This document shows positions 12,459 to 39,803 of a stretch of 43,937 nucleotides of DNA, piece by piece (position 1 is the first letter of the stretch; each line of letters opens with the position of its first letter). The stretch covers positions 1-43,937 of the forward strand of contig PWKM01000150.1 of assembly GCA_003559755.1 (NCBI GenBank), given 5' to 3'. A program made the position numbers and the translations under genes. The stretch comes from Planctomycetota bacterium. GTDB taxonomy: Bacteria > Planctomycetota > PUPC01. The notes beneath the pieces were generated by a model, which did not search any database, was not told the DNA's origin, and saw only the letters and a list, made by a program, of their open reading frames with translations.

Positions 12459-12474
12459 CCGAAAACGTGGTCCG

Positions 12475-15036: not shown

Positions 15037-15061
15037 CACGCCGGAGGCCGAATCGAGGGCG

Positions 15062-23335: not shown

Positions 23336-23395
23336 TTCTGATACTCCTTTCGGGGTCGGGCAAGGCCGGGCCGGCCACCCGATCATTCTAACATG

Positions 23396-24013: not shown

Positions 24014-24044
24014 GGGCCGGGGCTCCCCCGAATTTCGATCACCA

Positions 24045-24075
24045 GGGTCTGCCTGCGGGCAGGCCCTTTTCTATT
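24045..24075 (+). terminator. Rho-independent terminator after the zinc-ribbon gene
   Basis: GGGTCTGCC-TGCG-GGCAGGCCC forms a 9-bp stem with one G-U pair, followed by TTTTCTATT. It sits between convergent genes. Confidence 0.6.
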
Positions 24076-25738
24076 CGGTATCCGGTTCCGGCGGCCGCGT
24101 GAGGAGGCGGGCGTCCGACCATCCGAGTTCGTTGCAGAGATCGACGACGCGCACCACCCATCGGTAGAGTGTTGCCGGCTCGGGCTGGATGGTGACCTGG
24201 ACATCGTCGGCGGTTCGTCGCAGGCCCGCGATGTATGTGAGGCGCTCGCGGAGCCAGATCAGGTCCCCGGTCTCGGAGGGATCACTTTCCGACAGGGTGA
24301 CGGTCACGGGCGGGATTTGGGCGGGGTGGCCGTCGCTGACGCCGATGTGGATATGTATCCGTTCGATGCGTGCCGGCCTCTCGACGTCGCGTCTGGCGAG
24401 CGGACCGCGGTTCCAGTCCAGGCGCAGGGCCATGTGATCGCGTGTTCTCACCTCGAGGGGTTCATGCGTCGCTCCCTCGATCACTTTCGTCTCGGCCGGT
24501 TCTGCTTCCTGGATGGCGTGGAACACTTCGGCCAGTTGCAGTGCGGTCGTATCCTCGTCGATGATGACGGAGAATCCCTTGTCCGAATCGCCCTCTTGCC
24601 AGAGGGTTGCCAGTTCTTGTGCGGTGACCCGTGCGCCGTCGATCTGGATACGGTTTTCCTGGAGCTCGGCGGTCAGACCGACCTCGAGGTCTTCCTTGAG
24701 TCGGACGGTTTCGAGCGATTCGACCTGTATGCCGCTCCGGTGGATGGCATCGAACGCCCGGTATATTGCGTCGGGCGGCGCCCCGTGGTCGATTGTGATG
24801 CGGAGCGAGTCTTCGTCCTCTTTGTCCCGAATATCTCGAAGTGTGTCGAGCAGGAACATCGGTTCGCGCTCGTTGAGCAGCACGCGCCCGCCCCGGGTGA
24901 TGTCCATGTGGATGACCTGGCCCCCGAACTCGTTTTTGGGGGGCGGTTCCGGCAGTTCGGCGGGTTTGATGATGAGGGTGACCTCGGTGCCTACCGGCGG
25001 GACGACGTCGGTGTTGACGACGAACGCCCGGTCGTCGGCCCCGATTTCAAGCGGGAGGTCAAGCACGGACATCGGGTCACGGAACACGGTGACCACGGAT
25101 AGCTCGCGGTTCGCCCAGTAGATTTCCCTTCCGGTCTGGGGCTCCTGGACAAATCGGCTGCCCAGGAATACGTAATGGGTTCGGCACATCAGCCGTTGGT
25201 CGATCTGGTTCCAGACCAGGTCTTCCGAGCGGTACGTCTTGGGGCCGTCCTCGGTCTCGAACCGGACGTAGATGTTCACCGGGTCCCCGGAGGGGGCATG
25301 CTCGGGGTCCCCCTGGAATCGCGGCCCGGCGTCGGCCGGTGCGGGCTTCAGCCCGAGGGCAAGCAGGAACATATGGAGGTCGCTCGGCTGGAGGTCGAGC
25401 GCGATGATGCTCTCGTATTCTTTGCCGCCGCGTGCACAGGCGAGCAGTTCGATGGGGCCTTCATCCAGGCAGATTTCCCCGTCGACCTCGATGCGTCTCT
25501 CCTCGGGGTAAAGCCGCGCCCCGCGCCTGCTGATGACCTTCCGGTCGGCGATTTCGGGCAGGGCTTCGGGGTCCTCGATCTCTTCCCGCTCGACGATGTC
25601 ATCCGCTTCGGGCGCCTCGTCGGCGTTCGCGGAGCCGGCCCAGATGGCCGGGGCCAGGGCGGCAAGAATGAGAGCAACGGCAAGGCGGGGTCCCATCCGC
25701 AAGAATGTCAACTTTCGGGCTGAATTTAACGTTCTCAT
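24071..25738 (-). CDS. Secreted protein: YdjY-like N-terminal domain followed by three ExbD-periplasmic-domain-like repeats
   Basis: Signal peptide (LAVALILAALAPAIWAGSANA). YdjY-like segment (EVDGEICLDEGPIELLACARGGKEYESIIALDLQPSDLHMFLLALGL). Three segments fit the ExbD C-domain pattern (e.g. IHMDITRGGRVLLNE...LRITIDHGAPPDAIYRAFDAIHRSGIQ; VQVTIQPEPATLYRWVVRVVDLCNELGW). It is the last gene of the TPR-exbBDD operon. Confidence 0.7.
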   Translation of the reverse strand: MRTLNSARKLTFLRMGPRLAVALILAALAPAIWAGSANADEAPEADDIVEREEIEDPEALPEIADRKVISRRGARLYPEERRIEVDGEICLDEGPIELLACARGGKEYESIIALDLQPSDLHMFLLALGLKPAPADAGPRFQGDPEHAPSGDPVNIYVRFETEDGPKTYRSEDLVWNQIDQRLMCRTHYVFLGSRFVQEPQTGREIYWANRELSVVTVFRDPMSVLDLPLEIGADDRAFVVNTDVVPPVGTEVTLIIKPAELPEPPPKNEFGGQVIHMDITRGGRVLLNEREPMFLLDTLRDIRDKEDEDSLRITIDHGAPPDAIYRAFDAIHRSGIQVESLETVRLKEDLEVGLTAELQENRIQIDGARVTAQELATLWQEGDSDKGFSVIIDEDTTALQLAEVFHAIQEAEPAETKVIEGATHEPLEVRTRDHMALRLDWNRGPLARRDVERPARIERIHIHIGVSDGHPAQIPPVTVTLSESDPSETGDLIWLRERLTYIAGLRRTADDVQVTIQPEPATLYRWVVRVVDLCNELGWSDARLLTRPPEPDTE

Positions 25739-25806
25739 ATGCGTGCCTGTCCGCTTCGGCCGGCCATTCGTGCTAATCAATGCTGCTGTTCGCCGGTTCG
25801 TGTTTC

Positions 25807-26325
25807 TCAGCCGTCTGGCGGGTCACGTGGGAGCGACCTTCTGGAGGCGGCAAAATTGACCTCCTGGAACCCTTCGCCGCGACATATGGCGACGGCCTTG
25901 ATGACCCATCTGTACTTGACGGCGGGTTCGACCTCGAGTATGACCGGTACATTCTCCCGGACCTGCGGGTCCTGGGCGTGCTTGGCGATTTCCTGGTGGA
26001 GCGTTCTGAGTCCACCGAGCACGGTCCGATCGACATCGATTTGGATGCCGTCGTCCGGCGCGCGGGTCACCTCGTATGTCGGCTCCGCCTCGGGGTCCCC
26101 TCCCCGTGTGCGGATCGTCACCCTGATCTCCGGTTCGATCTCGGCCACGGTCAGTTGGTCGGGCGGGCCGGCCTCCTGGGGCAGGTAGGCCTCGAGCTCG
26201 CCCTCGGGGACGCGGAAGCGGGTGACCACGAAGAAGAAGATCAACAACTGGAACACGATGTCGATCATCGGGGTCATCTGGAGCTTTGAGTCTTCGCCCG
26301 CATTCATGCCTCGCAGGAACTTCAT
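25807..26325 (-). CDS. exbD: ExbD/TolR biopolymer transport protein (paralogue 2)
   Basis: LQMTPMIDIVFQLLIFFFVV TM with the conserved Asp, plus a periplasmic domain (VPVILEVEPAVKYRWVIKAVAICRGEGF). Confidence 0.9.
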   Translation of the reverse strand: MKFLRGMNAGEDSKLQMTPMIDIVFQLLIFFFVVTRFRVPEGELEAYLPQEAGPPDQLTVAEIEPEIRVTIRTRGGDPEAEPTYEVTRAPDDGIQIDVDRTVLGGLRTLHQEIAKHAQDPQVRENVPVILEVEPAVKYRWVIKAVAICRGEGFQEVNFAASRRSLPRDPPDG

Positions 26326-26329
26326 ATCT

Positions 26330-26836
26330 TTATCCCTCTGCCAATCGAACGCTGAACGACATTTTATAGAATCGCATCCGGGCCGCCCGTTCCATCACGT
26401 CCTGAACGGTCCGCCATTCGACGTTTCTGTCCGCCTGGACCAGGATGGGCTGTTCGGATGGTTCGTCCCCCAGCCCCCTGTACTGCCGTTCGACGCGGAA
26501 GTACCTGAGGACCTGGTCCCTGGCCTCGGCCCCCGACTCTCTGAGGTCGTACATCTGCTGTACGCGGCCCTGGATATAGACGGTGTCCATCATCCTGACC
26601 TGGCCGTCTGCAGGGTCAACGCGCTCGCGGGGGATGATGCTGATGATAATCCTGTCGGGGATATTCGTCTCTTCCCGTGCCTGGGCGGCGTAGGGGAGTT
26701 CGAGTCCCTCGATGTGGTCATAGGAGATGATTTCCGAGACCACCAGGAAGAAGATGAGGAGCAGGAACACCACGTCGATCATCGGCGTGAGGTTCATCTC
26801 CAGCTCTTCTGGATGAAATCGCTTGGTGACGTGCAT
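26330..26836 (-). CDS. exbD: ExbD/TolR biopolymer transport protein (paralogue 1)
   Basis: MNLTPMIDVVFLLLIFFLVV TM with the conserved Asp. Its stop lies 4 nt from the start of the next exbD. Confidence 0.9.
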   Translation of the reverse strand: MHVTKRFHPEELEMNLTPMIDVVFLLLIFFLVVSEIISYDHIEGLELPYAAQAREETNIPDRIIISIIPRERVDPADGQVRMMDTVYIQGRVQQMYDLRESGAEARDQVLRYFRVERQYRGLGDEPSEQPILVQADRNVEWRTVQDVMERAARMRFYKMSFSVRLAEG

Positions 26837-26842
26837 GGTGTG

Positions 26843-27610
26843 CTACTCCACAGGTCGGAATCGGGCCATCAGTTCGCCGCTGATGGCGCCCACTTCCAGA
26901 ACGATCTTCTGGACGCGGTTTTTGAAGAACTGGTAGATGCACATAACCGGGATGGCGACGATGAGGCCGAGGAACGTGGTGACCAGTGCGAGCTGGATGT
27001 TTTGTGCGAGGTCGGCCGGTTTCGGGGGGACGTCCGGGTTTGCGATGGCTGCGAACGCACGGATCATGCCGAGCACGGTCCCCAGCAGCCCGAGCATGGG
27101 CGAGATGTTGGCGATGAGTGAGAGGTAGCTGATCTTCTGTTGCAGATCGACTGCGGCCTCTTCTCCCGCCTCGCTCATTGCCTCTTCCATCTGCTTATAA
27201 CCGGCGTTCACCCGGGAGAGGCCGGCTGCGATCACGTTACTGAAGAAGGTCGGCTGTTCCTCGCAGACCATGATGGCCTCCTCATACTCCTCCTGCTCGA
27301 AGCATTCTTCGACATCGGCGAGCAGTTCCGGCGGCATGATTACGCCGCGCCGGATGGTCAGCCCGTGCTCGATGGCCAGGGCGATGGATATGAGGAACAG
27401 GAAGATGATGATGTAGCCGATCAGCCCACCGGCCTGGATGACCTCCAACACGCTCATCGTCTCGGTTGGGTCTTCCTCCGGCTCGGCCGCGGGCGCCGGC
27501 TCCTCGGCCGCCTCAGCGACCATCACGACCGGGGCGCAGAGAAGCAGAACGGCTATTATCAGGATGATGGCGAATGGCTTCCAGCTTCCGGCCCTCCAAC
27601 AATCAGGCAT
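26843..27610 (-). CDS. exbB: MotA/TolQ/ExbB proton-channel protein with N-terminal signal peptide and acidic Pro-rich linker
   Basis: AAGGAGAG RBS 8 nt before ATG 27610. Core motifs: GGLIGYIIIFLFLISIALAIEHG, ISPMLGLLGTVLGMIRAF, ALVTTFLGLIVAIPVMCIYQFFKNR. Confidence 0.9.
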   Translation of the reverse strand: MPDCWRAGSWKPFAIILIIAVLLLCAPVVMVAEAAEEPAPAAEPEEDPTETMSVLEVIQAGGLIGYIIIFLFLISIALAIEHGLTIRRGVIMPPELLADVEECFEQEEYEEAIMVCEEQPTFFSNVIAAGLSRVNAGYKQMEEAMSEAGEEAAVDLQQKISYLSLIANISPMLGLLGTVLGMIRAFAAIANPDVPPKPADLAQNIQLALVTTFLGLIVAIPVMCIYQFFKNRVQKIVLEVGAISGELMARFRPVE

Positions 27611-27699
27611 ACCAGATCTCTCCTTAAAACGAGCCACAATTTCGGGGCCGATGGCTTTTTGGCATCGTGCCCCACGAATTCATTATCCGGTCGATCCGC

Positions 27700-28842
27700 T
27701 CAGCCGCCCAGTTCTCTGAGGCCGGTCCTCGCGTCATCGACCACATCGCTGTCCGGAAAATTCTCGATCAATTCTCGATAGAGGCGACGTGCCCGGGTCC
27801 TGGCGGCGGGGCCGCCGATCTCGACCGAGGCCGTTGCCGCGCCGAACATCGCTTTTGGCCTTTCTCTGCGCGCCTCTGGGTATAGTATATAAACTCTCAT
27901 GTAGGAAAGCACGGCCTGGTTCAGATTAACCTTCTTCTCCGTCTCGTCCTCAGCCCGGCGGCCGGCCTCGAAATGGAGATCGCCCAGTGCCATGTACAGG
28001 CGGAGGCGGTTGGCCCTCTCGGTAATTCTGTCCTCGATGCTGTCGATCCACCGGGTGGCATCGTCCGCCCGCCCGAGGTCGACGAGTACCTGGCCCTTCC
28101 CCACCAGCGCCCGCTGGTAGATATTGCGCACCTGGTCGAGATCGTGTTCCAGGTCGCCCGGGTTTCGGAGTGTCTGTCCGATGTCGTTGACCAGACGCTC
28201 ATAGATGCCCATCGCTTCCTCTTGATTTTCGACTATCAGATGGGCCTCTGCCTGGCCTTCCAGGGCCACGAGCTCCCAGAGCGGGCCATGTTCTGCCATC
28301 TTCCGGTAGGTCTCGATCGCCTGTTCGTGCTGACCGAGTTCGCGGTGGGCCCGGGCCTTGGCTTGAATGGCTTCGAGAACGTAGAAGGAATTGGGGTGTT
28401 CGTCCAATACGACATCGAACTTTTCCAGGGACTCCTCGGCTTTGCCCGTCTCGAGCAGGATTCGCCCGAGGATGACCGCCCTGTATGGCTGATACCAGAA
28501 GCTTCGCGGTTCCGGTTCCACCCCACGCTCGATGAGCGCGAGCGCTCGTTCCCATTCTCCGTCTTCCACCTGCCGGATGGCCTGGGCGAACTGGCGGGCA
28601 TCGCCCCAACCGATCTCTACCACTTCGCGGGATGGGACGGTCTGGATCTCGGCTTGCCTTTCCTGGAAAGCGCGGTAGGCGACGTGCTCGGTTGTGGCTT
28701 CGGTGACGGTAATCTGGCGGACTCTGCTTCCATCGCGTCGGGTGATCGTGTCCGGCATCCTTGGGTCTTCCGCTGCGGCTGCATCGGGGATCGTCAGCCC
28801 GACAACAAGGCCCAGCACGGCTATGCTGAGTAGATATCGCAT
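27700..28842 (-). CDS. Secreted TPR-repeat protein (380 aa)
   Basis: AGGAGG RBS (28851-28856) before ATG 28842. Signal peptide MRYLLSIAVLGLVVGLTIPDAAAA. TPR-like repeats (e.g. FYVLEAIQAKARAHRELGQHEQAIETYRKM). The upstream extension of the ORF to 29079 overlaps the preceding gene and is rejected. Confidence 0.8.
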   Translation of the reverse strand: MRYLLSIAVLGLVVGLTIPDAAAAEDPRMPDTITRRDGSRVRQITVTEATTEHVAYRAFQERQAEIQTVPSREVVEIGWGDARQFAQAIRQVEDGEWERALALIERGVEPEPRSFWYQPYRAVILGRILLETGKAEESLEKFDVVLDEHPNSFYVLEAIQAKARAHRELGQHEQAIETYRKMAEHGPLWELVALEGQAEAHLIVENQEEAMGIYERLVNDIGQTLRNPGDLEHDLDQVRNIYQRALVGKGQVLVDLGRADDATRWIDSIEDRITERANRLRLYMALGDLHFEAGRRAEDETEKKVNLNQAVLSYMRVYILYPEARRERPKAMFGAATASVEIGGPAARTRARRLYRELIENFPDSDVVDDARTGLRELGG

Positions 28843-28858
28843 GGTTGTGGCCTCCTGT

Positions 28859-31800
28859 CTATTGCAGTTTGGTCTTGAGTTCTCTGGCGCGTTCCCGGAC
28901 CTGTTCTTCGTCGGCCCGTTCGATGACCGAATCGATGAACCTGATGAACGTCTCCTGGCCTCCGGCCAGTTCGGGGTCCAGCTCGCGGGCTCTCTCGATG
29001 GCATCCAGAGCACTGCCGTAGTTGTGGCTCTCGATTTCGTCGCGGGCATCGGCCGCCCTGATCCTGACCAGCAAGGCACGCGCCCTGTCCTGTTCCTCGC
29101 CCGGTTCGCTGCGGTTGTAGACCTCCCGGACCACGGATGCCAGCCGGCTGCGAATCTCGGGGCCGCCGAGGGATGGTTCGCCGGCCGCTCGCCGCCGAAT
29201 GACCCGGAGGTTATCGCTGTATCGACCGTCCAGGTTCCAGAGTTCCGCGATGGTTGCGACCACGTCCCACCAGTCTTCGGAATAGGGTGTCAGCCGCCTC
29301 AGAAGTTCGGTGCAATGTTCGAGTGCCTCGTTGAGATAAGCATCGGACCCGGGGGCGAGTTGTTGAGCCGCCTTCGCGAGGTGGAGGCGGGTCGTCGCCC
29401 AGTAGGGCGGAGGGGTTGCGTCTTCATCGTGCTGCAGGCGGCGGTTGTATATTTCGTCGAGCCGGTCGTACTGTTCCTTGAGTTCGATGTATGCTTCCTC
29501 ATACTGGCCGGTGTGGTAGTACGCCGTGCCCAGCAGGATGCGGGCCCTTTCGAGCTGCACCTGTTGGGTCCTTGTGAGGAGCGGGTCGCCCTCGAACCGT
29601 TCGAGGAAGAGTTCCAGGAACGGGAGCCCCTCGTTCAGGCGGTCCTGGCGATGGAATTCGCCGACTGCCCAGTACAGCGTCTCGTAGGGCTGTTCGGGAT
29701 TCCTGTTGATCATCGCGGTCACGATGTCGAGGGCCCGGTTGGCCGACTGGGAAGCGATGTCGCGTTTTTCTTGGATTTGCTCCCGGAGCCCTCTCCGTTC
29801 AGCGGGTTCCTCGGCCTGTTCCGCCTGTGCCTCGAGCTCTTGTGCTTCGCTTCGGGATGTCCGGGCGTTTGCAGCGTGAGCACGGAACCGTGCTTCGTCC
29901 GCCGCTCTCAGCAGCCGCTCTCCCTGGGGCTGTCTCTCCTCGTCCATCTCCAGGACGACCCGTTCCAACTGGGCATAGGCGTCTTCCGCATCGTCCAGGA
30001 GTTCCAGTCGTACCAGCGCCTGTACGCGATAGTAGCTGACGGCCGGATGGTAGACAGCGGCATCGGGGAACCGTCCGACGAAGTTCTCGGTCAGTTCGAG
30101 ATAGGCCTCGTAATCCTCGCGGCCCGGCCAGATATAGATTCGGCTGAGCCCATAGACGGCGGCGGGCATGAGCCGAGCGCGCCGTCGGTTGACGGCGGAA
30201 TAGATCGATTCCTGCTCGGCCCGTTCCATGAACCGCAGAAAATCGGCTTTGGCCTGATCGAGCAAAGAGCTGCTCCGCTGGGGGGCTTCGTTTCGCAACT
30301 GCTGGGCCCAGAGCATCCGTGCCTCGGCGGTCTTCACGATCGCCGCCTCGTAGTAGACCGAGTCCTCGGGGATTTCCGCCAAGCTGGCGACGGCCTCCTC
30401 GAATTCGCTGCTGGCGATGTGTCGGAGGGCGTCCTCGTACATCCGGGGCTCGCCTCCAAACGTCTCGAGGAACCAGTTCCTGACCCATTGGTACAGCAGT
30501 TCGTCGGCTTCGTCCCCGGTCGCGTCCCGCTGCTGCCGGAGCATCAGGCGGGCCAGCCGGCCGTAGGTCTCCTCCTGCTCTCCGCCTTTGCCCGAGGAGA
30601 CGATGTGGCGGTAGACGGTGAATGCCTCGTGGAACATGTTTTCCTGGCGGTAGGCCATTGCCAGGAGTTGGAAGGCCGTTGTGCGTTGTTCGGAGGTAAT
30701 CTGGTCGCCGAACTCCAGAAGCTGCGGGATGAGGCGGATCAGGGCTTCGTTGTCGCGCGCCCGATGTGCTTCGGAGATCTGGCGCATGACGGCTCGCGGC
30801 CCCATGCCGTCGAGTCCATACCGCTGGCGGAGCGAGATGGCCTGCCCTTCCCACTGGGGATGCTGCTCGGAGAGGCGCTCCAGCAGGGTGTTGGCCCGTT
30901 CCTGTGCTTCTTCCGCCCGTTCTTCCCGGCCGCCTTCACGCAGGCGACTGGCGAGCATCAGGATGAGTTCTCCCCGGGCAATCAGGGCCTCCGGCATCTC
31001 GATGCCATCGAGGTACCGGATGGCCTCTTCGATTTTTTCGCTGTCCTGGTTGGCCATGGCCAGTGCCCGGACCGCCTTCGTCCGATGCTCCCACAACCTG
31101 AGCTCGTCGGTGAGCTGCGGAACAGATTCCATTGCGTCCTCGATGAGGAGCAGGTTCATTTCTGCGCTTCGTTGGGCCTGTCTGTAATCTTCGGCGGCGA
31201 GGTATGCCCGGGACAGGGTCAACTGTCCGATGATGGTCTCGCCACGCAGCCCGTATTCAGGGCAGAGGATTTCGAGGTGCTCAATGGTCTTTTGCAGCAG
31301 TTCATTTCGCCGTTCGGTCTCTCTGGGGGGGAGTGCCTGATAGTAGGCGAACCTTGTGCGGTTGAGTTCATAGCCGGCGTTGGCGTGCTTGCCCTGCAGC
31401 TCGCCGAGTATTCTCAGCCACTCTTGCAGTTGGGCTCGGTCGTCCGGTCGTTGTTTCTCGTGTTCTTCCAGCGCCTGGGCCGCCACATCAGTAAGCCGTT
31501 CCAGCCCCTCAATCGCGCGTTCGAAGGCCTGGGACATCCTCTGGAGGAGTTGATCCCGCTGGTCACCGCTGGCCACTGCGGCCCGATTGGCATATTGCTC
31601 GGCCTGGGCGCGCAGGCGGAGAAACTCGGCGACAGTCCCCACTCTTGCCGAAGGGTCCAACTCTTCCAGTTCCGCACTGTACCGATCGACGTATTCCTGG
31701 TGACGGGCGCGTTTGGCATCCGCCTCGGCGCTGGACAGGTGCCCGTGGACGGCGCCGGCAAACTCCCGATGGGCGGCGAGAAGGGCGTTCAGGGCCTTGG

Positions 31801-31987
31801 CCCGCTGGCCCTCGTCTTCAATCTCGTCCAGGCGATTCTCGAGCACCTCGATGCCCAGATCGGGGAAACCGCGCTCGACGAGGCCGGCCCCAAAATCGAT
31901 ATCTTCGTCAAGTGGCGCTGCCGCTGCCGACGACGCCATAAGCCCGGCCAGGAGTAGAGCAGAACTCAATGTGATAACCAATCGCAT
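28859..31987 (-). CDS. Secreted giant TPR-repeat protein (1042 aa)
   Basis: AGGAG RBS. Signal peptide MRLVITLSSALLLAGLMASSAAAAP. Helical-repeat composition rich in Ala/Leu/Glu/Arg/Tyr throughout. GC3-rich codons in this frame, whereas the 1087-aa antisense ORF is Gly/Pro/Arg-rich shadow. Confidence 0.85.
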   Translation of the reverse strand: MRLVITLSSALLLAGLMASSAAAAPLDEDIDFGAGLVERGFPDLGIEVLENRLDEIEDEGQRAKALNALLAAHREFAGAVHGHLSSAEADAKRARHQEYVDRYSAELEELDPSARVGTVAEFLRLRAQAEQYANRAAVASGDQRDQLLQRMSQAFERAIEGLERLTDVAAQALEEHEKQRPDDRAQLQEWLRILGELQGKHANAGYELNRTRFAYYQALPPRETERRNELLQKTIEHLEILCPEYGLRGETIIGQLTLSRAYLAAEDYRQAQRSAEMNLLLIEDAMESVPQLTDELRLWEHRTKAVRALAMANQDSEKIEEAIRYLDGIEMPEALIARGELILMLASRLREGGREERAEEAQERANTLLERLSEQHPQWEGQAISLRQRYGLDGMGPRAVMRQISEAHRARDNEALIRLIPQLLEFGDQITSEQRTTAFQLLAMAYRQENMFHEAFTVYRHIVSSGKGGEQEETYGRLARLMLRQQRDATGDEADELLYQWVRNWFLETFGGEPRMYEDALRHIASSEFEEAVASLAEIPEDSVYYEAAIVKTAEARMLWAQQLRNEAPQRSSSLLDQAKADFLRFMERAEQESIYSAVNRRRARLMPAAVYGLSRIYIWPGREDYEAYLELTENFVGRFPDAAVYHPAVSYYRVQALVRLELLDDAEDAYAQLERVVLEMDEERQPQGERLLRAADEARFRAHAANARTSRSEAQELEAQAEQAEEPAERRGLREQIQEKRDIASQSANRALDIVTAMINRNPEQPYETLYWAVGEFHRQDRLNEGLPFLELFLERFEGDPLLTRTQQVQLERARILLGTAYYHTGQYEEAYIELKEQYDRLDEIYNRRLQHDEDATPPPYWATTRLHLAKAAQQLAPGSDAYLNEALEHCTELLRRLTPYSEDWWDVVATIAELWNLDGRYSDNLRVIRRRAAGEPSLGGPEIRSRLASVVREVYNRSEPGEEQDRARALLVRIRAADARDEIESHNYGSALDAIERARELDPELAGGQETFIRFIDSVIERADEEQVRERARELKTKLQ

Positions 31988-32312
31988 CAGCGAAGCTCCT
32001 GGAATGATGGGAACAATTTCCTTTGTTATTCTAATAAACGAAAGGAAGGGCCAAAAAGTTCACGACCACCGGCAAAATTGCCCAATATCAGCCCGGCGGG
32101 CTTGCAGCCCCGCCCGCGAGCTGACGTTGCGACAACACCAGGTCAGATAGTGAAGCAGACTGACACGACCGGATACTCGTCCGGCCCCGGCCGAACAAAC
32201 GTTCTTGAACTTTGCCCCGGCCCAACTCGGGAGACAGGCATTGGCAAAGGCACTGCACCGCCACACAGCAAACGAACGGGTGACAACATCAATTGGTAGT
32301 AGTATCGGCCGG

Positions 32313-32906
32313 CTACTCTTTCTGTTCAATAATATGTGCGGTGACCAGGACGATCAGGTTATTTCGTGAGATGATCCTGCGACGGCTCCTGAAGAGGCCG
32401 CCAATGAGCGGGAGGTCGCCGAGAATGGGAAGTTTGGCATGCCCCTCAGCGTCGACCGCCTCGGCAAGCCCACCGATGAGCAGCGTCCCGCCGTCGGGCA
32501 CCGATACGGTGGTCATCACCTGCCGGGTGCTGATGGTGGGCAGTTGGACGAACCGCTCGAGAGCTACCGCCAGGCGTTCGTCATCATCATCGTCAACATC
32601 AAGCAAATCGAGGTCCTCACGGGTCGCGAAACCAAAGCGATCTATTTGCTCCGCTACATTGACCTGGGGCCTGAGCTCGAGTGTGATGTATCGGCGGTCG
32701 GCGCTGACGAACGGTTGGACCTCGAGGGTGATGCCGCTGTTGACCTGCCCGATCTCGGGCTGCTCGTCGGCGTCATAACTTCTGACGTAGCTCGTTCTCG
32801 TGGCGATGGTGACGAACGCCCGCTGGGTATTGAAGCAGGTGACGCGCGGTGCGGTCAGGATGTTGCCTCTCTTTTCCTTTCGGACGGCGTTGATGATTGC
32901 CCGAAC
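32313..32906 (-). CDS. Secretin (GspD/PilQ family) C-terminal secretin domain; in-frame continuation of the upstream ORF after a TAG codon
   Basis: My own translation from directly after TAG (32909-32907) reads VRAIINAVRKEKRGNILTAPRVTCFNTQRAFVTIAT...VQLPTISTRQVMTTVSVPDGGTLLIGGL...KLPILGDLPLIGGLFRSRRRIISRNNLIVLVTAHII. These are canonical secretin motifs. No convincing independent start or RBS. Confidence 0.8.
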   Translation of the reverse strand, partial: VRAIINAVRKEKRGNILTAPRVTCFNTQRAFVTIATRTSYVRSYDADEQPEIGQVNSGITLEVQPFVSADRRYITLELRPQVNVAEQIDRFGFATREDLDLLDVDDDDDERLAVALERFVQLPTISTRQVMTTVSVPDGGTLLIGGLAEAVDAEGHAKLPILGDLPLIGGLFRSRRRIISRNNLIVLVTAHIIEQKE

Positions 32907-34682
32907 CTACCAGCTATTGAGGAACCCGGTCATCAGCCGCATCCCGGCCTCTTCCCCGACTTGCTGGTGGCCCATTCTGGCGAAGGGGCCGGACTCGAGA
33001 GGCATGTCAATGCCGAGGCCGAATTGGGTCCGAATGCCCGGCCTGTAAAACCCGTATCGGCCGTCCGGGCCCACCCCTGTCCACCGGATACTCAACTCGT
33101 CGAGAAAGTCCTCTTCTACCTCGATAAACCGCGCCATGATGGCGACCTGGACGGCCCGCGCCCGTCGGAAGCTGGCGAGCAGTTCCCGAATTTCTTCCTG
33201 GACCTCGGGCGAGTGGGTGACAACCAGCCGGCCGGTGCGGTATGCAATGCGGTTCTGGCCGACCCCGCCCTCGATGTCCCAAGTGCCGGGTGCGATGGCT
33301 TCGCGGATGAAGGACATCCAGCGGTCCCCCTCGATCTCGTGCTCCATCCTCTTGACGTCATCCTGCCCCGAACTGGAACTGAACCAACTGCGGTCGTCCT
33401 TCCGCCGCTGGAACTCGGGCGTCCCGATGCCGCCGTCGGACATCTCGGTGTTGAAGTCCCTCGGCTGGATGGTCAGGTCGGAGATGTCGTGCCACATGGT
33501 GACCGGCCGCTCGGCCAAGCCTTCCTCGTTGGAGATGAACACGGCGCCATCCCGGATACGCCAGTCGAGGTTCGCGTTTTGCAACCGAACAAGGAAATTG
33601 AGCACGCTCTCCATCGGTGCGTTCCGCATCCGGAGGCTGACCGGCTCGACCGTGGGAAGGATGGTCGGGTCGACGATAATGTTGAGATCGCCGGCCGCTC
33701 GCATGTAGTCGATGGCTTCCTCGAACGGACGCCCGTCGAACTGGACGCTGATCCGGGTGGCCTTGAGTCGGGCCTGGATCTCCTTCTGGGTTCGTTCGTC
33801 GTCGTCTGACACACGCGGCTGCCGAGTGATCAGGCCGGACGTCTCGGGAGCCGGTCGGCGCAGCCGACTGCTGACCGGTTCCGGTCGGATGGTGTCGTAA
33901 CCCATCTCGCTCAGGTCGGTGGACATCATCTCGCCGACCATCCGGTCGGCCCGTGAGATCATCCCTTGAAGCCCCGGCTCCACGTCGATTCGTTCCTCGG
34001 GAACGGGGGGGGACCTGTCGGGCGCGGGGGCAGTGGGGACGGCCGTCTCGAGGGTGGGCTCGTCGCCCGACCGGCTCAGCAGGCCTTCCATCTGGAGCGC
34101 CCTTGCCCGCCTCAGGCCGGCCTCGGCCTGGTTGACAAGCTCCGGGAACCGCTCGTTGATGGGCTGGAGGACGTTAATGGCCTGGTCGAACCTGGCGGTC
34201 GATTCGTTGTAATCGCCGTCCGCGATGCCGGCCTGTCCGGCGTTGATGAGTTCCTCGGCCCTTGTTCTCAGGGCTTCCGGGCTGTTCAAGCCGGCGGTGT
34301 CTGCTCCCGCCTGACTGGTCTCCTGAGCCGGGGGCTGGGGCAGTGAGGACATTTCTGCCTCGCCGGGTGTCTCCGGCTGCAGAACGGGTTCGGATGAGGG
34401 AGCCGCAACCGCCTCATCGCCCGCTCTTTCTGTCGCCTGTTCGAGGCCCTGGCGGGCGGCATCCAGGTCGGGGTCGCAGTTGAGTGCGGCTCGGAAGTGT
34501 TCGACCGCCTGGGCATATTCCCCTGCGGCGAGCAGTTCCTGCCCCCTTTCCATGAACCCGATGGCGACGCTCCTTAACGGGCTGACATCGGCCGCCGCGG
34601 TGCCTGGCACGGACATGGTCGCACAAACAAGTAAGCCAGCGAGCAGGATTTTCGTAATCAAGTCGAGCCCTCTTTCTTCCAT
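32907..34682 (-). CDS. Secretin N-terminal part (signal peptide, TPR-like head, N-domains, start of the secretin domain), ending at an in-frame TAG
   Basis: GGGAGACC RBS before ATG 34682. Signal peptide ITKILLAGLLVCATMSVPGTAAA. TPR-like AAGEYAQAVEHFRAALNCDPDLDAARQGL. N0/STN-like ISVQFDGRPFEEAIDYMRAAGDLNIIVD...VSLRMRNAPMESVLNFLV. Ring-building VQVAIMARFIEVEEDFLDEL. Confidence 0.8.
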   Translation of the reverse strand: MEERGLDLITKILLAGLLVCATMSVPGTAAADVSPLRSVAIGFMERGQELLAAGEYAQAVEHFRAALNCDPDLDAARQGLEQATERAGDEAVAAPSSEPVLQPETPGEAEMSSLPQPPAQETSQAGADTAGLNSPEALRTRAEELINAGQAGIADGDYNESTARFDQAINVLQPINERFPELVNQAEAGLRRARALQMEGLLSRSGDEPTLETAVPTAPAPDRSPPVPEERIDVEPGLQGMISRADRMVGEMMSTDLSEMGYDTIRPEPVSSRLRRPAPETSGLITRQPRVSDDDERTQKEIQARLKATRISVQFDGRPFEEAIDYMRAAGDLNIIVDPTILPTVEPVSLRMRNAPMESVLNFLVRLQNANLDWRIRDGAVFISNEEGLAERPVTMWHDISDLTIQPRDFNTEMSDGGIGTPEFQRRKDDRSWFSSSSGQDDVKRMEHEIEGDRWMSFIREAIAPGTWDIEGGVGQNRIAYRTGRLVVTHSPEVQEEIRELLASFRRARAVQVAIMARFIEVEEDFLDELSIRWTGVGPDGRYGFYRPGIRTQFGLGIDMPLESGPFARMGHQQVGEEAGMRLMTGFLNSW

Positions 34683-34910
34683 AGTGTCGGTCTCCCTACT
34701 ACACTTGCGCCCGCCGGGCGGCGAAACAACATATAAGGGGCCTGCCCGGCCACGATAAAAAACTGATTCCAGGCCGCCTCGAACAGGATGGCGGCCACCA
34801 GATTGGCAGGGGATGGAGGCGCATCGCAACGCGTGACAGGAGGCCGGTACGCGCCCGGCAACCCTTGCGCCTGTTCCCGTTTCTCAAAAATACATCCATG
34901 ATCGGTTCGT

Positions 34911-36299
34911 TTACTCCGGTCGCATCTGGTCCGCCTGGCCGCGAATCTCTTCCATTACATGGGCCGGCCAGAGCACCTTTATACGTCCTCTTTGATCAAT
35001 AAGCAAGGCCTTTGGGTCTCTTCTTTCATATTCGCGTCCCGCTCGAACCCGTACCCACGTCTGCCGGGGCAGAACATCCAGCAGGCGATAGCCGGTGGAG
35101 AAGTCGATCGGCTCATCGAACCGGAGCACCGAGCGACCGGGCCGGCGCTCGACGTGTCGGCTGAGCTGCCAGCCCACCGGCTGGCCCGGTCTGACTGCGA
35201 ATCTCGCCCGTACCTCGACCATCCTCGGCTCGCCGATTTCGTCCTCGCCCTCCTGATCGGGATCGAGATGGGGGACGGTTGTGGTGACGTAGAACGAGGC
35301 GCGGTCGGCGCTGGCCGTGATGAACTCGATCTGGAACGGCTCTTCCACCTGCACGGGCAGAGGCCCGGCCTGTTCACTGGTCACCGTCGGCTCGTCGCCC
35401 GGCCCGAGTTCAACAGCGAACAACACATATTCATAGTCGACGCTCGGGACCAGATCGCGGTCCTGATAGATGAAGGTGCGGTCCTTGAACACGACCGGAT
35501 CGGGCAACGGGGTCTGATCGGCGGCCCGTGTTTCCAGAACGATGCCGTCGGGCGGAACGACCTCGGGGTCGAGGTCGACGTCTTTCACCACCGCCCGAAG
35601 GAGGAGCACGGGGGACTCGTCGCCGGCCCTGCGATACAGCCGATATTCGTGGACCTCGGCGTTTACCGCCTCGGGCTGCCCCCACGAGAGCCGAGCCCGG
35701 GCATCCTGGACCGCGACGGAGAAGCGGGGCGGGCGGGCGATCCTCCGCAGTTCCGGCGGGGCCACAGTGACCGGAACAACCACGATGATCTCGTCGGCCC
35801 TTCGCAACGTGACCTGCGTCCTGCCCGCGGAACGGGGTGTCAGCCGAAGGACCTGCTCGGCCGTGATGATCTGGGCTTCGACGATGTCCGGGTGCTGCAC
35901 ATGGACTGCGGCGTCCCACTCCTGGTCGACCAACTCGACATCTACGGTCTCGTCCGGCTCGTCGAGTGACAGCCGGACTGTTGCGACCTGTCGAGCGTCC
36001 GGGGGTGCGACGGGCCTCTCCGGGGCGGGCAGTTCGACCTGCGACACCTTGATATCGGGCCGGAGTTCGCCGATGGAGGCGGTGAGGTAATCCTTGTCAA
36101 GCGGCGGCATTTCGTAGCTCGACGCTTCCTGTTTCCGGAGCAGGTTCTCGATGCGCGCTTCGACATCCGCCGGCGACACTTCCGGGACGGGTCGAGCCAG
36201 CAGCGCGCGGCCGACAAATACTATGGCAAGCAGTGCCAACAAGGCGACAATCGCCTTGTCGACCACTCGGAAAAGGACGCCTCCTGCTGAACTAGCCAT
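34911..36299 (-). CDS. Bitopic hypothetical protein in the PilP position of the pilus-like cluster (462 aa, FN3-like segment)
   Basis: N-terminal TM (AIVALLALLAIVFVGRALLA). FN3-like ARLSWGQPEAVNAEVHEYRLYRRAGD. Good GC3 coding signal. Located between the PilO-position gene and the secretin. Confidence 0.65.
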   Translation of the reverse strand: MASSAGGVLFRVVDKAIVALLALLAIVFVGRALLARPVPEVSPADVEARIENLLRKQEASSYEMPPLDKDYLTASIGELRPDIKVSQVELPAPERPVAPPDARQVATVRLSLDEPDETVDVELVDQEWDAAVHVQHPDIVEAQIITAEQVLRLTPRSAGRTQVTLRRADEIIVVVPVTVAPPELRRIARPPRFSVAVQDARARLSWGQPEAVNAEVHEYRLYRRAGDESPVLLLRAVVKDVDLDPEVVPPDGIVLETRAADQTPLPDPVVFKDRTFIYQDRDLVPSVDYEYVLFAVELGPGDEPTVTSEQAGPLPVQVEEPFQIEFITASADRASFYVTTTVPHLDPDQEGEDEIGEPRMVEVRARFAVRPGQPVGWQLSRHVERRPGRSVLRFDEPIDFSTGYRLLDVLPRQTWVRVRAGREYERRDPKALLIDQRGRIKVLWPAHVMEEIRGQADQMRPE

Positions 36300-36329
36300 C
36301 TCGTTCTCTTATTCCTGTTTGTCGCTCGA

Positions 36330-38012
36330 CTACCTGCGCAGCCGAACCGTTATAACCAGGTCTCCTGTATCCATCCGTCGCGAGATGGGCACTCGGATCG
36401 TGATGTCACGATCGACCAGAGCGTCCTCCTCGGTGATAATCACTGTGCCCGTCGCCTCCTGGAACCGCTCGGTCTGCAATCCGTCCCGGGCCCGCAAGAG
36501 GGCATATCCGAACTTGAATGCTACGTCGCTCATCGATACCGGGCGGGCCCGGTGTCGAGCGAGGTAATACGTCTGCCAATCGCCCACGGGCTCCGGCAGG
36601 AGGGCCCTCATCTGGCGGACACGTCCTTCGACCGGGACCACTCGGTCCAGGTAGAGGGTGAGGGTGTCATCCACTTCCTCGGCGTCGAGCCGGTCAATGT
36701 CAGCGGTTACGTCCTCGGGCCTCTCAGAATGTCCAAGATACCACCGATCTTCCCATCGCGCAACTATCAGCGGAAATTCGCCGTCGCCGTTCTGGATCAA
36801 GTAGGCCTTTCCGTCCACCAGCGGTACGAGGTAGTCTCTGGTCAGGTCGAAGCGGGCAGACTCTTGGAGCACCTGGCTCACCTCTTCGCGGAACTCCTCG
36901 CGAGCCCGGTCGTGTTCGCCCGTCCACTCCTCTGCGGTCTCGGCGTCTCCGTCGGCCTCATCCCCATCCCCTTCAAGCGATCCGTCGATGTCCTGCAACC
37001 GGCTGCTGAGGGCGGCTTCCATCTCCCATTTCAGGTTGCTGAGGATTCGCTGACGCAGTGGCCGATGGTGTTCGACCGAGAACTGCGTGGCGGTCCGAAG
37101 GTCTCGAATCTGGTTCTCGAGCCAGTCAGAGATCATGGCCCGGGTCTCGAACAGGTTCGTCGGGAAGCTGACCGTGTAGATCGCCGGCAGGAACTCGATG
37201 ATGTCGCAGCCCATGACAACCCGGTATTGGGGAGCTTCTTCCTCGATATCGGACCCGCCGTTGATCCGCTCGATCTCGTAGTTGGTCACCTGCAGGAACT
37301 TGGGGCTGTTGTGTATCTTTTCTATGAGGCGGTTCAGGTCGCGATACGACTGCACGGTGAAGGCCAGGTCGAGCCCGATTGTCTGGACCCAGTCGTGGCT
37401 GACCAGCCCGACGGAGGTGGCCACCAACTGCATGCGTGAGAGTTCCAGGATCAGCGGCGCCCGGTCCGGCTCGGGTCGAGCGACATCAATCATCGCCTCG
37501 ACGGCATACTTGAGCAGCCAGTACTCTCTCTGAAGCATCTGGGCCGCCCGGATGCGCTCCTGGTCCGTCTCGTAGGTATCGCGCATCACTCTGAACTGCA
37601 ACACGGGGCGGTCCGGGGTAGGAAGCATTTGGGCGAGGTGGGCAGCGAGATGCGACATCCTTCGTTCATATTCGACTTCCCACACCCGCCGCTGATCGCG
37701 ATGGAACGGGAGCCGGAACTCGTCAAAAGCTCGATCGAACATCCCCGACCGCGCCGCGAACAGCATCAGCAGTTCGCCGTAATGCCGTTCCCACCGGGTC
37801 CTCTCCTCCGCCGCGCTGCGAACCATTTCCGGGTTGGGGATCTCGGCCCGGGCCTCCCATTTGTCAAGTGTCCCAATCGCCCTCTGGCTCTCACGCTCCA
37901 GGGAGACAATCCTCTCGTCCATCCCTCTGTCAACCATCAGATAGCCGACCGAGAGCGCCACCACGACCAGACCCAGGACGATCCAGAAAAGGTTGTTCTT
38001 GATGAATGCCAT
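36330..38012 (-). CDS. Bitopic hypothetical protein in the PilO position (560 aa; possibly PilO/Amuc_1100-like N-terminal half)
   Basis: N-terminal TM (LFWIVLGLVVVALSVGYLMV) and a coiled-coil. Ferredoxin-like segment LDLAFTVQSYRDLNRLIEKIHNSPKFLQVTNYEIER. Its ATG overlaps the pilMN stop as ATGA (38010-38014). Confidence 0.65.
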   Translation of the reverse strand: MAFIKNNLFWIVLGLVVVALSVGYLMVDRGMDERIVSLERESQRAIGTLDKWEARAEIPNPEMVRSAAEERTRWERHYGELLMLFAARSGMFDRAFDEFRLPFHRDQRRVWEVEYERRMSHLAAHLAQMLPTPDRPVLQFRVMRDTYETDQERIRAAQMLQREYWLLKYAVEAMIDVARPEPDRAPLILELSRMQLVATSVGLVSHDWVQTIGLDLAFTVQSYRDLNRLIEKIHNSPKFLQVTNYEIERINGGSDIEEEAPQYRVVMGCDIIEFLPAIYTVSFPTNLFETRAMISDWLENQIRDLRTATQFSVEHHRPLRQRILSNLKWEMEAALSSRLQDIDGSLEGDGDEADGDAETAEEWTGEHDRAREEFREEVSQVLQESARFDLTRDYLVPLVDGKAYLIQNGDGEFPLIVARWEDRWYLGHSERPEDVTADIDRLDAEEVDDTLTLYLDRVVPVEGRVRQMRALLPEPVGDWQTYYLARHRARPVSMSDVAFKFGYALLRARDGLQTERFQEATGTVIITEEDALVDRDITIRVPISRRMDTGDLVITVRLRR

Positions 38013-39667
38013 CAGATGCCGCCTCCCATCTCCGGACCTTCGACTCGATATGTGCAGGTAACCATAAACTCGATGCCCTCGTCACCCATGCCCGGCGAAT
38101 CATAATCGACCGCTGCCAGGCCCTCTTCGCCCTCGAATGTGCCCGAGACGGCCCGGCGAACGCGAGCGGAATCAACCAGGCCGGTGCCCGGGGCGACGCC
38201 CCGAACACTAAAGCGGATGCTGTACCCATCGCGATCCAGCATGGGTTCGGCATGTATCCTCGTCACCAGAATGTCGATGCCGACCCTCTCCGAATCGCCA
38301 AGACGTTCGATCACCCGGTTGAGCACGTTCTGGGCTTGGGGGACCGCACGGAACCCGTGGCTCAGATCGAGCGGCTGATCGAGCCGACGGCGAGCGTCCT
38401 CGGCCTCCCGCGTCGCCCCGTCGAACTCGTCCGAGATGGACTCGAATTGCTCGTCAATCTGAACGACCTGTTCCTGACTGGCGATCTGCTCCTGCAACTG
38501 CTGCCTCTCCACTTGGCGCGAATAGAGGTTGGCCCCGAAGATCAGGGCGAGGCAGGCGATCCCGGCCGCGGCATAGGGCTTCTTGCTGCTGAGGGTCCGC
38601 CGGCGGATCAGCTCCCGGGGCATCAGGTTGACGCTGACCCGGCCCCGACCGACTCCGTCTAGAGCCAGTCCGATGGCCGGCCCCAGCGACGGCAGCATGT
38701 TCCGCAACTGGGTGCCGTCAACGTCGGGGGCGAGTGTGACCCGCTCGAGTGTGTCGGCGGGAACTTCGCTGCAGTCGAGCTGCTGGATGAAATACTCGCG
38801 TACGCCGGGCAGGCGGAACGTGTTGCCGAGGAGCAGGGCGTCCTCGATCCGCACGTTATGAATCTGCGATTTGAAGAACCCGATCGTGCGCTGTATCTGG
38901 CCCACCAGCTCGTTGAGCGTCGGCTGGGCGAGCTTGAACAGGCGGGCGGCCTGGGCCTTGTCCCGGCATTCGCGCTTGAGGCGCTCGGCCTCCTGGGGGT
39001 CGATCTTCAGCCGTTCGGACAGTGCCCGCGTGATCCCGTTGCCCGACACGGTGATGTTTCGCACGCGGAAGTTCTGGGGGTCACAGATGAGCATGTCGGT
39101 GCTGCCTGCGCCGATGTCGATGATGATGGTGCCACGGGCGACGTCCCGGTCGAACGTCAGATAGTTGTACAGGGCGAGCGGGACGGGGAGTATGGCGGCG
39201 GGCTCGAGCTTGCACAGGCGGAGGTTGGCGAGCAGCGAATAGATGAACTGTGACCGGAGCGAAAAGATCGCCACCTCGGTCTCCTCGCCCGGGGCCGTCT
39301 CCTCACGGACCCGCTGATAATCCCAGACGACTTCATCGATGGGGAACGGGATCTGCTGGCGCGCCTCGTACCGGACCACCTCGGGGATGCGCTTCTCGTC
39401 CACGGGCGGGAGCGGGATAAATCGGCTGAAGGCCGGCTCGGGGATGGAGACGACGAGCGGCGTCTTGCCGAAGTTGTTGCGGGCAGCCAGCGTGGTCACC
39501 GCCTCGCGTAGCTGATAATCCTTATCACCGGTATCGTCAGCCGGGGGCTTCCGCTCGACCACGTCGAACGCGACAATTTCGGCGCCGATGCGTGTACGGC
39601 GCATCTTCACCGCCTTGACCGTGCTCTCCCCGATGTCCAAGCCCCAAGCCACGCGTGCTGTCAACAT
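38012..39667 (-). CDS. PilM (actin-like ATPase fold) :: PilN fusion protein
   Basis: WGLDIGESTVKAVKM and IIIDIGAGSTDMLI are actin-fold phosphate motifs. This is followed by SVNLMPRELIRRRTLSSKKPYAAAGIACLALIFGANLY, the PilN signature plus TM, then a coiled-coil and a periplasmic domain. ATG 39667 is the likely start. Confidence 0.8.
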   Translation of the reverse strand: MLTARVAWGLDIGESTVKAVKMRRTRIGAEIVAFDVVERKPPADDTGDKDYQLREAVTTLAARNNFGKTPLVVSIPEPAFSRFIPLPPVDEKRIPEVVRYEARQQIPFPIDEVVWDYQRVREETAPGEETEVAIFSLRSQFIYSLLANLRLCKLEPAAILPVPLALYNYLTFDRDVARGTIIIDIGAGSTDMLICDPQNFRVRNITVSGNGITRALSERLKIDPQEAERLKRECRDKAQAARLFKLAQPTLNELVGQIQRTIGFFKSQIHNVRIEDALLLGNTFRLPGVREYFIQQLDCSEVPADTLERVTLAPDVDGTQLRNMLPSLGPAIGLALDGVGRGRVSVNLMPRELIRRRTLSSKKPYAAAGIACLALIFGANLYSRQVERQQLQEQIASQEQVVQIDEQFESISDEFDGATREAEDARRRLDQPLDLSHGFRAVPQAQNVLNRVIERLGDSERVGIDILVTRIHAEPMLDRDGYSIRFSVRGVAPGTGLVDSARVRRAVSGTFEGEEGLAAVDYDSPGMGDEGIEFMVTCTYRVEGPEMGGGI

Positions 39668-39775
39668 GCCAACAGACCCACCTAAAAACAGGGAGGAGTT
39701 AGTATTACCGGCAGACAAAGAACCGGAACCCAGAACGAACAAACCAGCTTGCAATTCTTTGTAATAAGCTCCCCC

Positions 39776-39803
39776 ATTATAGACAGGGCGGGATGCCAGT
39801 CAA
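39776..39803 (-). promoter_or_regulatory. Near-consensus sigma-70 promoter for the pilMN-secretin operon (TTGACT-N16-TATAAT)
   Basis: The minus strand reads ccTTGACTggcatcccgccctgtcTATAATggggg, about 109 nt upstream of ATG 39667. Confidence 0.5.

Follow-up and report, generated by a model that had tools for sequence, protein, structure and literature searches.

A run of ten consecutive open reading frames (ORFs), g1 to g10, occupies the minus strand of a contig from a Planctomycetota bacterium, from position 39667 down to 24071. The sequence analysed, hereafter called the window, is the complete 43,937-bp NCBI contig (60–67% G+C). In order, the genes encode a PilM::PilN-like fusion, two proteins of no assigned family (g2, g3), a secretin, two secreted proteins (g5, g6), an ExbB, two ExbD proteins and a YdjY-domain protein (Table 1), so that a secretin module and a proton-motor module stand side by side on one strand. 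This architecture is real and conserved. It is a new assembly of known families, and no description of a secretin-ExbBD cluster was found in the literature searched. Our preferred reading, to which we give slightly more than an even chance, is that the locus encodes an envelope-spanning secretin complex of the "Amuc_1098/1101" type of the Planctomycetes-Verrucomicrobia-Chlamydiae (PVC) superphylum, joined to a proton motor that operates without TonB. Taken by itself, the claim that the two halves form one functional system is quite likely, with strong comparative evidence and the fusion of YdjY to ExbD-like domains in its favour. The ten co-oriented genes had been noticed in an earlier, sequence-only reading of this DNA, and are borne out by the ORF listing.

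Conservation of the gene order

Loci were collected by neighbourhood look-ups, by a YdjY-alignment scan of GTDB species genomes and by a secretin-alignment scan of metagenomes, and profile hidden Markov models built from the cluster proteins were run over all ORFs of 64 loci. The GTDB scan, with its narrow patterns, yielded only 10 loci. Homologue searches with PilM and YdjY were productive; the search with the read-through secretin came back nearly empty, probably owing to low-complexity words. The central alignment anchor g5 was not used for locus scanning because of its 20–29% identity. Dereplication at 90% secretin identity left 18 loci with at least 7.3 kb downstream of the last secretin.

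Adjacency of the secretin and motor halves in related genomes had been set beforehand as a test, and it was kept in 17 of the 18 loci. A YdjY gene lay downstream of the secretin in 18/18. The secretin was likewise followed in all 18 by genes for a helical protein of about 1050 aa and a tetratricopeptide repeat (TPR) protein of about 390 aa (the TPR protein was unscored in one locus). Genes for ExbB-ExbD-ExbD were found between the TPR gene and YdjY in 17 loci, the ExbB of L006 being detected by tblastn.

Two deeply diverged groups, made up of Planctomycetota metagenome-assembled genomes and metagenome contigs, share the order PilM::N-x-x-secretin(s)-g5-g6-ExbB-ExbD-ExbD-YdjY. Group A has a single secretin gene, whose product is 40–53% identical to that of the window. 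For group B, the identity is 27–36% for the secretin, with 32–36% by tblastn, and 13–21% for g2, g3 and g5, and two or three secretins stand in tandem in an order otherwise as in group A. The tandem duplication was observed in L003, L020-L031, L033-L037 and L042-L044, with three copies in L022, and suggests hetero-oligomeric or alternative secretins. The group B clusters are flanked by a rubrerythrin gene upstream and by a 2-hydroxyacid dehydrogenase and an HMGL-like gene downstream. Since these flanks are unrelated housekeeping genes, the boundaries of the cluster are PilM and YdjY. The recurrence of the order across two diverged groups argues that the two halves are not chance neighbours.

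Some loci have a YdjY gene directly after the secretin and no motor genes. The order in L007 is PilM, proteins of 489 and 635 aa, secretin (963 aa) and YdjY. In L060-L062, large secretins (1567, 1544 and a truncated 941 aa) have a YdjY gene (234–266 aa) directly next to them, and no PilM or ExbBD gene was found within reach of the pair. Giant secretins of 1500–2200 aa were seen in metagenome contigs L055-L063 (for example L059:6464-12073 and L063:3-6614). Loci of the Pirellulaceae type have PilM followed by two unknown proteins, without a secretin, and the YdjY genes of L016 (Verrucomicrobiota) and L017 (Planctomycetaceae) stand alone in unrelated contexts. The deepest link in the cluster is that of YdjY with the secretin.

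Spacing within each half of the window's cluster is short, and g1 is coupled to g2 by TGATG, a 1-nt overlap that had been misread as ATGA. A sigma-70-like site precedes g1 (a consensus match only), and a GC-rich hairpin, lying where g10 and a small Zn-ribbon gene end tail to tail, likely marks where the transcription unit stops. The gap between the halves contains neither a minus-strand consensus promoter or terminator nor an Rfam match, and its folding energy is unremarkable (z = -1.0). It does contain an AT-rich stretch and a ribosome-binding site ahead of g5. Gaps between secretin and g5 measure 28–171 nt in relatives (called genes), that of the window being the largest. The ten genes are probably one conserved cluster, transcribed as one or two units.

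Proteins encoded by the cluster

Table 1. Features of the window, with their coordinates. TM, transmembrane.
Feature	Position	Strand	Evidence or remark
Sigma-70-like promoter match upstream of g1	39776..39803	-	TTGACT-16-TATAAT, 11/12; consensus match only
g1, PilM::PilN-like fusion, 551 aa	38012..39667	-	Pfam PilM_2 8.4e-28
g2, bitopic protein in PilO position, 560 aa	36330..38012	-	TM helix residues 9-27
g3, bitopic protein in PilP position, 462 aa	34911..36299	-	TM helix residues 16-34
g4, TPR-STN/N0-secretin, 789 codons	32313..34682	-	frame interrupted by in-frame TAG
In-frame TAG in g4	32907..32909	-	Gln592 CAG in sister contig L001
Intergenic gap between the two halves (secretin-g5)	31988..32312	-	325 nt
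g5, secreted helical-repeat (TPR-like) protein, 1042 aa	28859..31987	-	signal peptide
g6, secreted TPR protein, 380 aa	27700..28842	-	Pfam TPR_6, TPR_14, TPR_16
g7, ExbB/TolQ-type proton channel	26843..27613	-	MotA_ExbB 6.3e-30
g8, ExbD/TolR paralogue 1	26330..26836	-	ExbD 2e-17; TM "PMIDVVF" aspartate
g9, ExbD/TolR paralogue 2	25807..26325	-	ExbD 2.9e-16; TM "PMIDIVF" aspartate
g10, secreted YdjY + three ExbD-like domains, 541 aa	24071..25696	-	alternative start 25738
GC-rich hairpin between convergent stops of g10 and small Zn-ribbon gene	24044..24067		10-bp stem
Second motor cluster	11005..16807	+	ExbB-ExbD pair with TPR and vWA proteins
IPT/TIG::ExbB	11005-12030	+	
ExbD (second cluster)	12027-12458	+	
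TPR protein, 867 aa	12433-15036	+	
vWA protein, 597 aa	15014-16807	+	TM helix "ISIFFHVLLLAS" with TonB-like S-x3-H

The PilM_2 match of g1 spans 338 of the 340 profile positions. The TIGR01175 score (121.6 bits) is just below the cutoff of 133, and the best NCBIfam match is Amuc_1101_fam, with 208 bits against a cutoff of 650. A C-terminal extension of about 190 aa opens with the motif "VNLMPRE" and runs through a TM helix and a coiled coil into a small C-terminal domain. No Pfam PilN match was obtained in g1; alignment of the C-termini revealed that the arrangement of motif, helix and coiled coil is conserved in its homologues. The PilM part of the proposed PilM::PilN fusion is borne out by the PilM_2 match, and the extension is PilN-like. 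All 145 homologues found are from Planctomycetota wherever the source names them.

Both g2 and g3 have one N-terminal TM helix, in agreement with their earlier description as bitopic proteins. No Pfam or NCBIfam family was assigned to g2, also when each orthologue was scanned against Pfam, and positional homologues of it are found in groups A and B. The top PDB sequence match of its profile, PilO of M. xanthus (3jc8), is not significant (E=0.23), and in an hhalign comparison of the PilN-like C-terminus of g1 with g2 the TM helices alone aligned. For g3, no family was assigned on the basis of isolated weak matches to fn3, T2SS-T3SS_pil_N and Secretin_N, and no PilP match was found in Pfam or PDB. 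Its TM anchor is uncleaved and without a lipobox. Of the family and structure searches that the sequence-only reading had called for, the Pfam, PDB-profile and hhalign runs were made for these two proteins and gave no significant result.

Just before its TM helix, on the cytoplasmic side, g3 carries the motif F-R-x-x-D/E-K, in which, across groups A and B, K15 never varies and F10 hardly does. Outside the motif, identity is 13–32% across the two groups. The motif may be a docking peptide for PilM or for the motor.

Read through the in-frame TAG, g4 encodes a TPR segment, an STN/N0 domain and a Secretin domain (residues 600–786, 5.4e-31). It is thus TPR-headed, as had been described, although the frame had been taken as intact. 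Among 11 orthologues, TPR was matched in nine, STN in five and Secretin in all. The best NCBIfam match is Amuc_1098_fam (135 bits, cutoff 750), and the TIGR02515 score is 116 bits (cutoff 284). The TAG sits eight codons ahead of the Pfam Secretin domain and cuts the gene as written to 591 aa; the NCBI gene calls on the contig are this 591-aa fragment and a separate one of 97 aa.

The codon reads CAG (Gln) in L001, a sister contig of ENA metagenomic origin that matches the window at 99.45% identity across 20.9 kb (107 mismatches), and the secretin encoded there is intact at 789 aa (P0010). The two secretin genes differ by nine synonymous and two non-synonymous changes, the TAG being one of the two. 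Over nine genes (g7 excluded), 49 synonymous and 19 non-synonymous differences were counted between the strains, which places the locus under purifying selection. The TAG is either a strain-level nonsense variant, in which case the secretin system may be inactive in the assembled strain, or a base-calling error.

The description of g5 as a secreted TPR protein stood in part: it is secreted, and no Pfam match, TPR or other, was found in g5 itself. The TPR assignment comes from its orthologues, 5 of 12 of which have TPR-family matches (best 4.9e-10). They are 1020–1180 aa long and always placed after the secretin. A 1087-aa plus-strand ORF (28694-31957) was rejected as a gene; it is a shadow ORF in GC-rich sequence, antisense to g5. 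The TPR matches of g6 bear out its description as a secreted TPR protein; it is weakly CpoB/YbgF- and BamD-like (TIGR02795 ybgF, 38.9 bits against a cutoff of 90.1).

The motor consists, as proposed, of an ExbB and two ExbD paralogues, and the TM aspartate is kept in both g8 and g9. An N-terminal signal or TM helix, an acidic linker, TM helices and the motifs LGLLGTV and TTFLGL were recognised in g7. Between the window and the sister strain, this linker of g7, which is rich in Pro/Glu and precedes the ExbB core, differs by an in-frame indel of 3 nt. The best NCBIfam matches, TolQ for g7 (67, cutoff 221) and TolR for g8 and g9 (47, cutoff 127), are all sub-cutoff.

The last protein, g10, has a signal peptide and no TM helix, and its YdjY domain scores 113.7 bits with NF040466 (cutoff 50). 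The family is PF27149 in Pfam, an annotation precomputed on g10 homologues. In an AlphaFold2 model of the 555-aa form (mean predicted local distance difference test score, pLDDT, 70), the YdjY domain (about 66-262) is followed by three alpha/beta domains (274-345, 353-412 and 478-545). These match the ExbD/TolR periplasmic domain in Foldseek with probabilities of 0.96–0.99, and the ExbD dimer structure 8pek with 0.99; with the full model, the ExbD-like domains alone were recovered. The architecture read from the sequence, YdjY followed by three ExbD-like domains, was in this way confirmed by profile, model and structure search. The periplasmic domain of g9 is 26% identical to the last g10 domain (E=8e-7), which makes this last domain a recognisable paralogue of its ExbD neighbour; no such similarity was found for g8.

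On its own, the YdjY domain gave a confident model, mostly beta (pLDDT 83.6, predicted template modelling score 0.84). In a set of 1.84 billion proteins, the family numbers 2401 representatives at E<=1e-3. The best listed matches are nearly all stand-alone proteins of 220–330 aa, and about a dozen of the best 150 of the 2401 representatives have an ExbD-like extension. The match of E. coli YdjY to the g10 domain is marginal (hhalign probability 12%).

The window had been described as free of pilin, pilus ATPase, TonB C-terminal domain and TonB-dependent transporter (TBDT), and no prepilin motif, T2SSE, TonB_C or TBDT match was found in it; the TBDT search covered every large ORF. In the wider set, about 940 kb in total, the prepilin motif was absent from all 66 loci and a T2SSE ATPase of the PilB/PilT type from 65 of the 66, within 10 kb. 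Pilus genes therefore lie outside the conserved cluster, a result that holds for the loci as distinct from whole genomes. The only ATPase of this type in the 940 kb, a PilT-like one on a groundwater contig (L065:4011-5159), is followed by a TPR protein, and 5 kb separate it from a related PilM-x-x-x-secretin(1239 aa) cluster downstream.

None of the ten cluster proteins has a TonB_C match. The SHLS-motif histidine that marks TonB and TolA is missing from every TM helix of the ten, and TolA, TolB and Pal were not found among them. The earlier statement that TonB is lacking therefore holds for the ten-gene cluster; for the window at large, it has to be read with the second motor cluster in mind, whose vWA protein has a TonB-like helix (Table 1).

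Proposed mechanism and alternative explanations

In the accepted view, cytoplasmic ATPases drive all the well-studied secretin systems (type II and type III secretion, type IV pili, filamentous phage export). For ExbBD and TolQR motors, the known route of action is via TonB or TolA. In the preferred reading, a pentamer of ExbB and a heterodimer of the ExbD proteins g8 and g9 would form a stator, in which proton flow would set the ExbD periplasmic domains in motion. The ExbD-like domains of g10 would dock on these, as ExbD domains dimerise, and the YdjY domain would contact the secretin complex. This last contact is inferred because the YdjY gene stays beside secretin genes even in loci that lack motor genes. 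In this way the YdjY protein would replace TonB/TolA and deliver work drawn from the proton-motive force (PMF) to the secretin, for its gating, its anchoring through peptidoglycan or its assembly. The TPR proteins would serve as periplasmic scaffolds, and the passenger could be a type-IV-like fibre, with ATPase and pilins encoded elsewhere, or a macromolecule. We put the chance that YdjY is the coupler between motor and secretin a little short of even.

Were this reading correct, the locus would be the first genomic case for the direct energising of a secretin by the PMF, and YdjY proteins would join TonB/TolA and the vWA proteins put forward in 2025 as a third type of force transducer in the periplasm. 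It would give a testable role to an uncharacterised domain family of about 2400 representative clusters, and name specific candidate genes for two unexplained traits of Planctomycetes, their uptake of macromolecules and their fibre structures. A stronger version, which we regard as rather unlikely, holds that the secretin is a pilus-independent conduit whose gate is worked by the PMF, the ExbB-ExbD-ExbD motor pulling on it via a soluble YdjY/ExbD-like adaptor in place of TonB. If true, it would provide an energised outer-membrane route for large molecules, such as the polysaccharide uptake attributed to the crateriform structures of Planctomycetota, and both the secretin system and its periplasmic force transducer would be of a new class.

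Several observations weigh against the preferred reading. The exception among the 18 loci, L022, has g5-g6-YdjY without motor genes. In group B, the YdjY protein is shorter (226–300 aa) and has no ExbD-like domains. Neither g2 nor g3 is assignable to PilO or PilP. A PDB search with the YdjY domain alone found no related fold (its best match had E 0.28 and probability 0.03), and no function of YdjY, the E. coli protein included, is described in the literature searched. The contacts proposed between motor, g10 and secretin are read from sequence, and it is gene neighbourhood and fusion that suggest the adaptor role. The gap between secretin and g5, large as it is, could contain an internal promoter, and the conserved order can reflect co-regulation of envelope functions in place of physical coupling. 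Finally, the secretin is interrupted by the TAG in the window's own assembly.

The locus could instead encode an ordinary type IVa-like alignment complex whose ATPases, platform, prepilin peptidase and pilins lie elsewhere. The TPR, ExbBD and YdjY proteins would be accessory to it, in secretin biogenesis, peptidoglycan anchoring or pilus dynamics, like pilotins, FimV/TsaP, ExeAB/GspAB or TonB3, and the motor would only assist the pilus. The PilM and secretin family matches agree with this explanation, though both proteins score below the type IVa pilus family cutoffs (TIGR01175 and TIGR02515). The absence of pilus genes from nearly all loci speaks against it, with the proviso that such genes may be distant: classical pilMNOPQ operons are also without pilB, pilC and pilin genes, and the PilT-like gene of L065 is close to a related cluster. 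In cultured Planctomycetes, pilB/C/D/T, pilM/N/O/Q and pilin genes are scattered across the genome (PMC7397252). TPR proteins are typical secretin pilotins (PMC4960237), and in Pseudomonas and Acinetobacter, functions that depend on pili are influenced by TonB-type proteins (PMC8811193). In contrast, g2 and g3 are two to three times as long as PilO and PilP, with no detectable homology to them. On balance we consider this explanation unlikely, while regarding it as a serious contender.

That the cluster is two independent neighbours, a secretin or pilus operon and a Tol-Pal-like envelope-maintenance operon held together by co-regulation or genomic inertia, is improbable. The gene order has been kept in 17 of 18 loci at protein identities of 13–35% between unrelated flanks, and YdjY directly follows the secretin where motor genes are missing (L007, L060-62) or closes the g5-g6-YdjY order of L022. 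The best NCBIfam matches of g7-g9 are TolQ and TolR, and g6 is weakly YbgF/CpoB-like, as a Tol-Pal-like operon would have it; however, every Tol-family score is sub-cutoff and TolA, TolB and Pal are absent. The gap between secretin and g5, with its AT-rich stretch and ribosome-binding site, is in keeping with two operons, as are a second such unit in the window and the TPR-TolQ-TolR-TolR units that occur with other partners elsewhere in PVC bacteria (PMC12204202).

That the locus is decaying and encodes nothing functional, the nonsense codon marking the loss of the secretin system, is very improbable: a TAG does precede the pore domain and split the NCBI gene call, but the gene is intact in the nearly identical sister contig, its synonymous differences outnumber the non-synonymous ones, the other nine genes are intact, and a single C-to-T change is equally explained by strain polymorphism or consensus error.

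Neighbouring genes and comparison with known systems

The cluster is preceded by a divergent oxidoreductase gene, as noted earlier and now confirmed as GFO/IDH/MocA family, beyond which lies a tRNA gene (41148-41222, minus strand; Rfam RF00005, 64.9 bits). Convergent with g10 is a plus-strand gene for a 117-aa Cys-rich protein (23660-24013) with two CxxC-type pairs, Zn-ribbon-like, which is kept downstream of YdjY in group A loci. A 148-aa minus-strand ORF downstream of g10 was rejected as spurious: 19 of 26 substitutions fall at third codon positions of the ORF on the opposite strand, which marks the plus strand as coding. Directly downstream of the ten genes comes a TatA/B/E-family gene (66 aa, 23136-23336, minus strand), with a promoter-like site (23424-23396) just upstream of it.

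A second ExbBD motor cluster, overlooked in the sequence-only reading, lies on the plus strand (Table 1). It is found directly downstream of the YdjY gene in most group A relatives (L005, L006, L011-L014), and is inverted or moved in the window and in an 83%-identical relative (L008). In PVC bacteria, TM-anchored vWA proteins encoded after TPR, tolQ-like and tolR-like genes were proposed in 2025 as force transducers replacing TonB/TolA, and it was stressed that further 5:2-motor systems are still to be found (PMC12204202). The second cluster fits this class, with its TPR, TolQ-like and TolR-like proteins and a TM-anchored vWA protein carrying the SHLS histidine; it differs in having one ExbD in place of a pair, and in the order ExbB-ExbD-TPR-vWA.

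The curated families that score best for the secretin and PilM of the window are those of the Amuc_1098-Amuc_1102 cluster of Akkermansia muciniphila. The Amuc_1098 secretin and g4 share an unusual TPR-headed architecture, and both come from the PVC superphylum (PMC4960237). In Akkermansia, the TPR-headed secretin is the most abundant outer-membrane protein of the organism (PMC4960237). The resemblance to this cluster, proposed before, holds at the family level and not at the equivalog level: scores are far below the equivalog cutoffs (135/750 and 208/650), and g2 and g3 match no Amuc family. Compared by description, the Akkermansia cluster has no ExbBD or YdjY partner on record in the literature searched.

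The first half of the cluster has the same order as PilMNOPQ: PilM with its actin-like fold, a PilN-type motif followed by TM helix and coiled coil, a pair of bitopic proteins, and a secretin. It differs in the fusion of PilM to the PilN-like part, in the 560- and 462-aa g2 and g3 without detectable homology, in the TM anchor of g3 where PilP is a lipoprotein, and in TPR instead of AMIN domains in the secretin, and no pilin, ATPase or platform gene is near it. Three pilQ-like genes, all non-essential and without an assigned role, are known from P. limnophila (PMC11958385).

The second half resembles the Ton system in its ExbB/ExbD motor of the 5:2 type with conserved aspartate, expected to act on an outer-membrane channel; the STN/N0 domain of the secretin is a fold shared with TBDT signalling domains. 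In contrast to the Ton system, the cluster has neither TonB (no SHLS helix, no TonB_C) nor a TBDT, its two ExbD subunits differ, coupling would fall to a soluble YdjY/ExbD-like protein, and the secretin would be the target.

In type IX secretion (PorLM/GldLM, SprA/Sov) and in the Agl-Glt machinery of Myxococcus, a PMF-driven 5:2 motor energises an assembly that spans the periplasm or outer membrane on TPR or periplasmic scaffolds. The likeness is one of logic only: no homology was seen beyond the MotA/ExbB family, and the outer-membrane component here is a secretin. ExeAB/GspAB are inner-membrane, peptidoglycan-binding accessory proteins for secretin assembly. TonB3 of P. aeruginosa and TonB2 of A. 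baumannii provide a genetic precedent for TonB-type proteins in pilus-dependent functions (PMC8811193). All of these are single accessory proteins, whereas here a complete ExbB-ExbD-ExbD motor lies inside a secretin cluster.

The vWA motors, in whose description secretins go unmentioned (PMC12204202), have in common with the cluster TPR, TolQ-like and TolR-like proteins followed by a protein other than TonB. They differ from it in that the last protein of the cluster, of the YdjY type, is secreted and has no TM helix, and in that the whole unit is joined to a PilM-secretin module.

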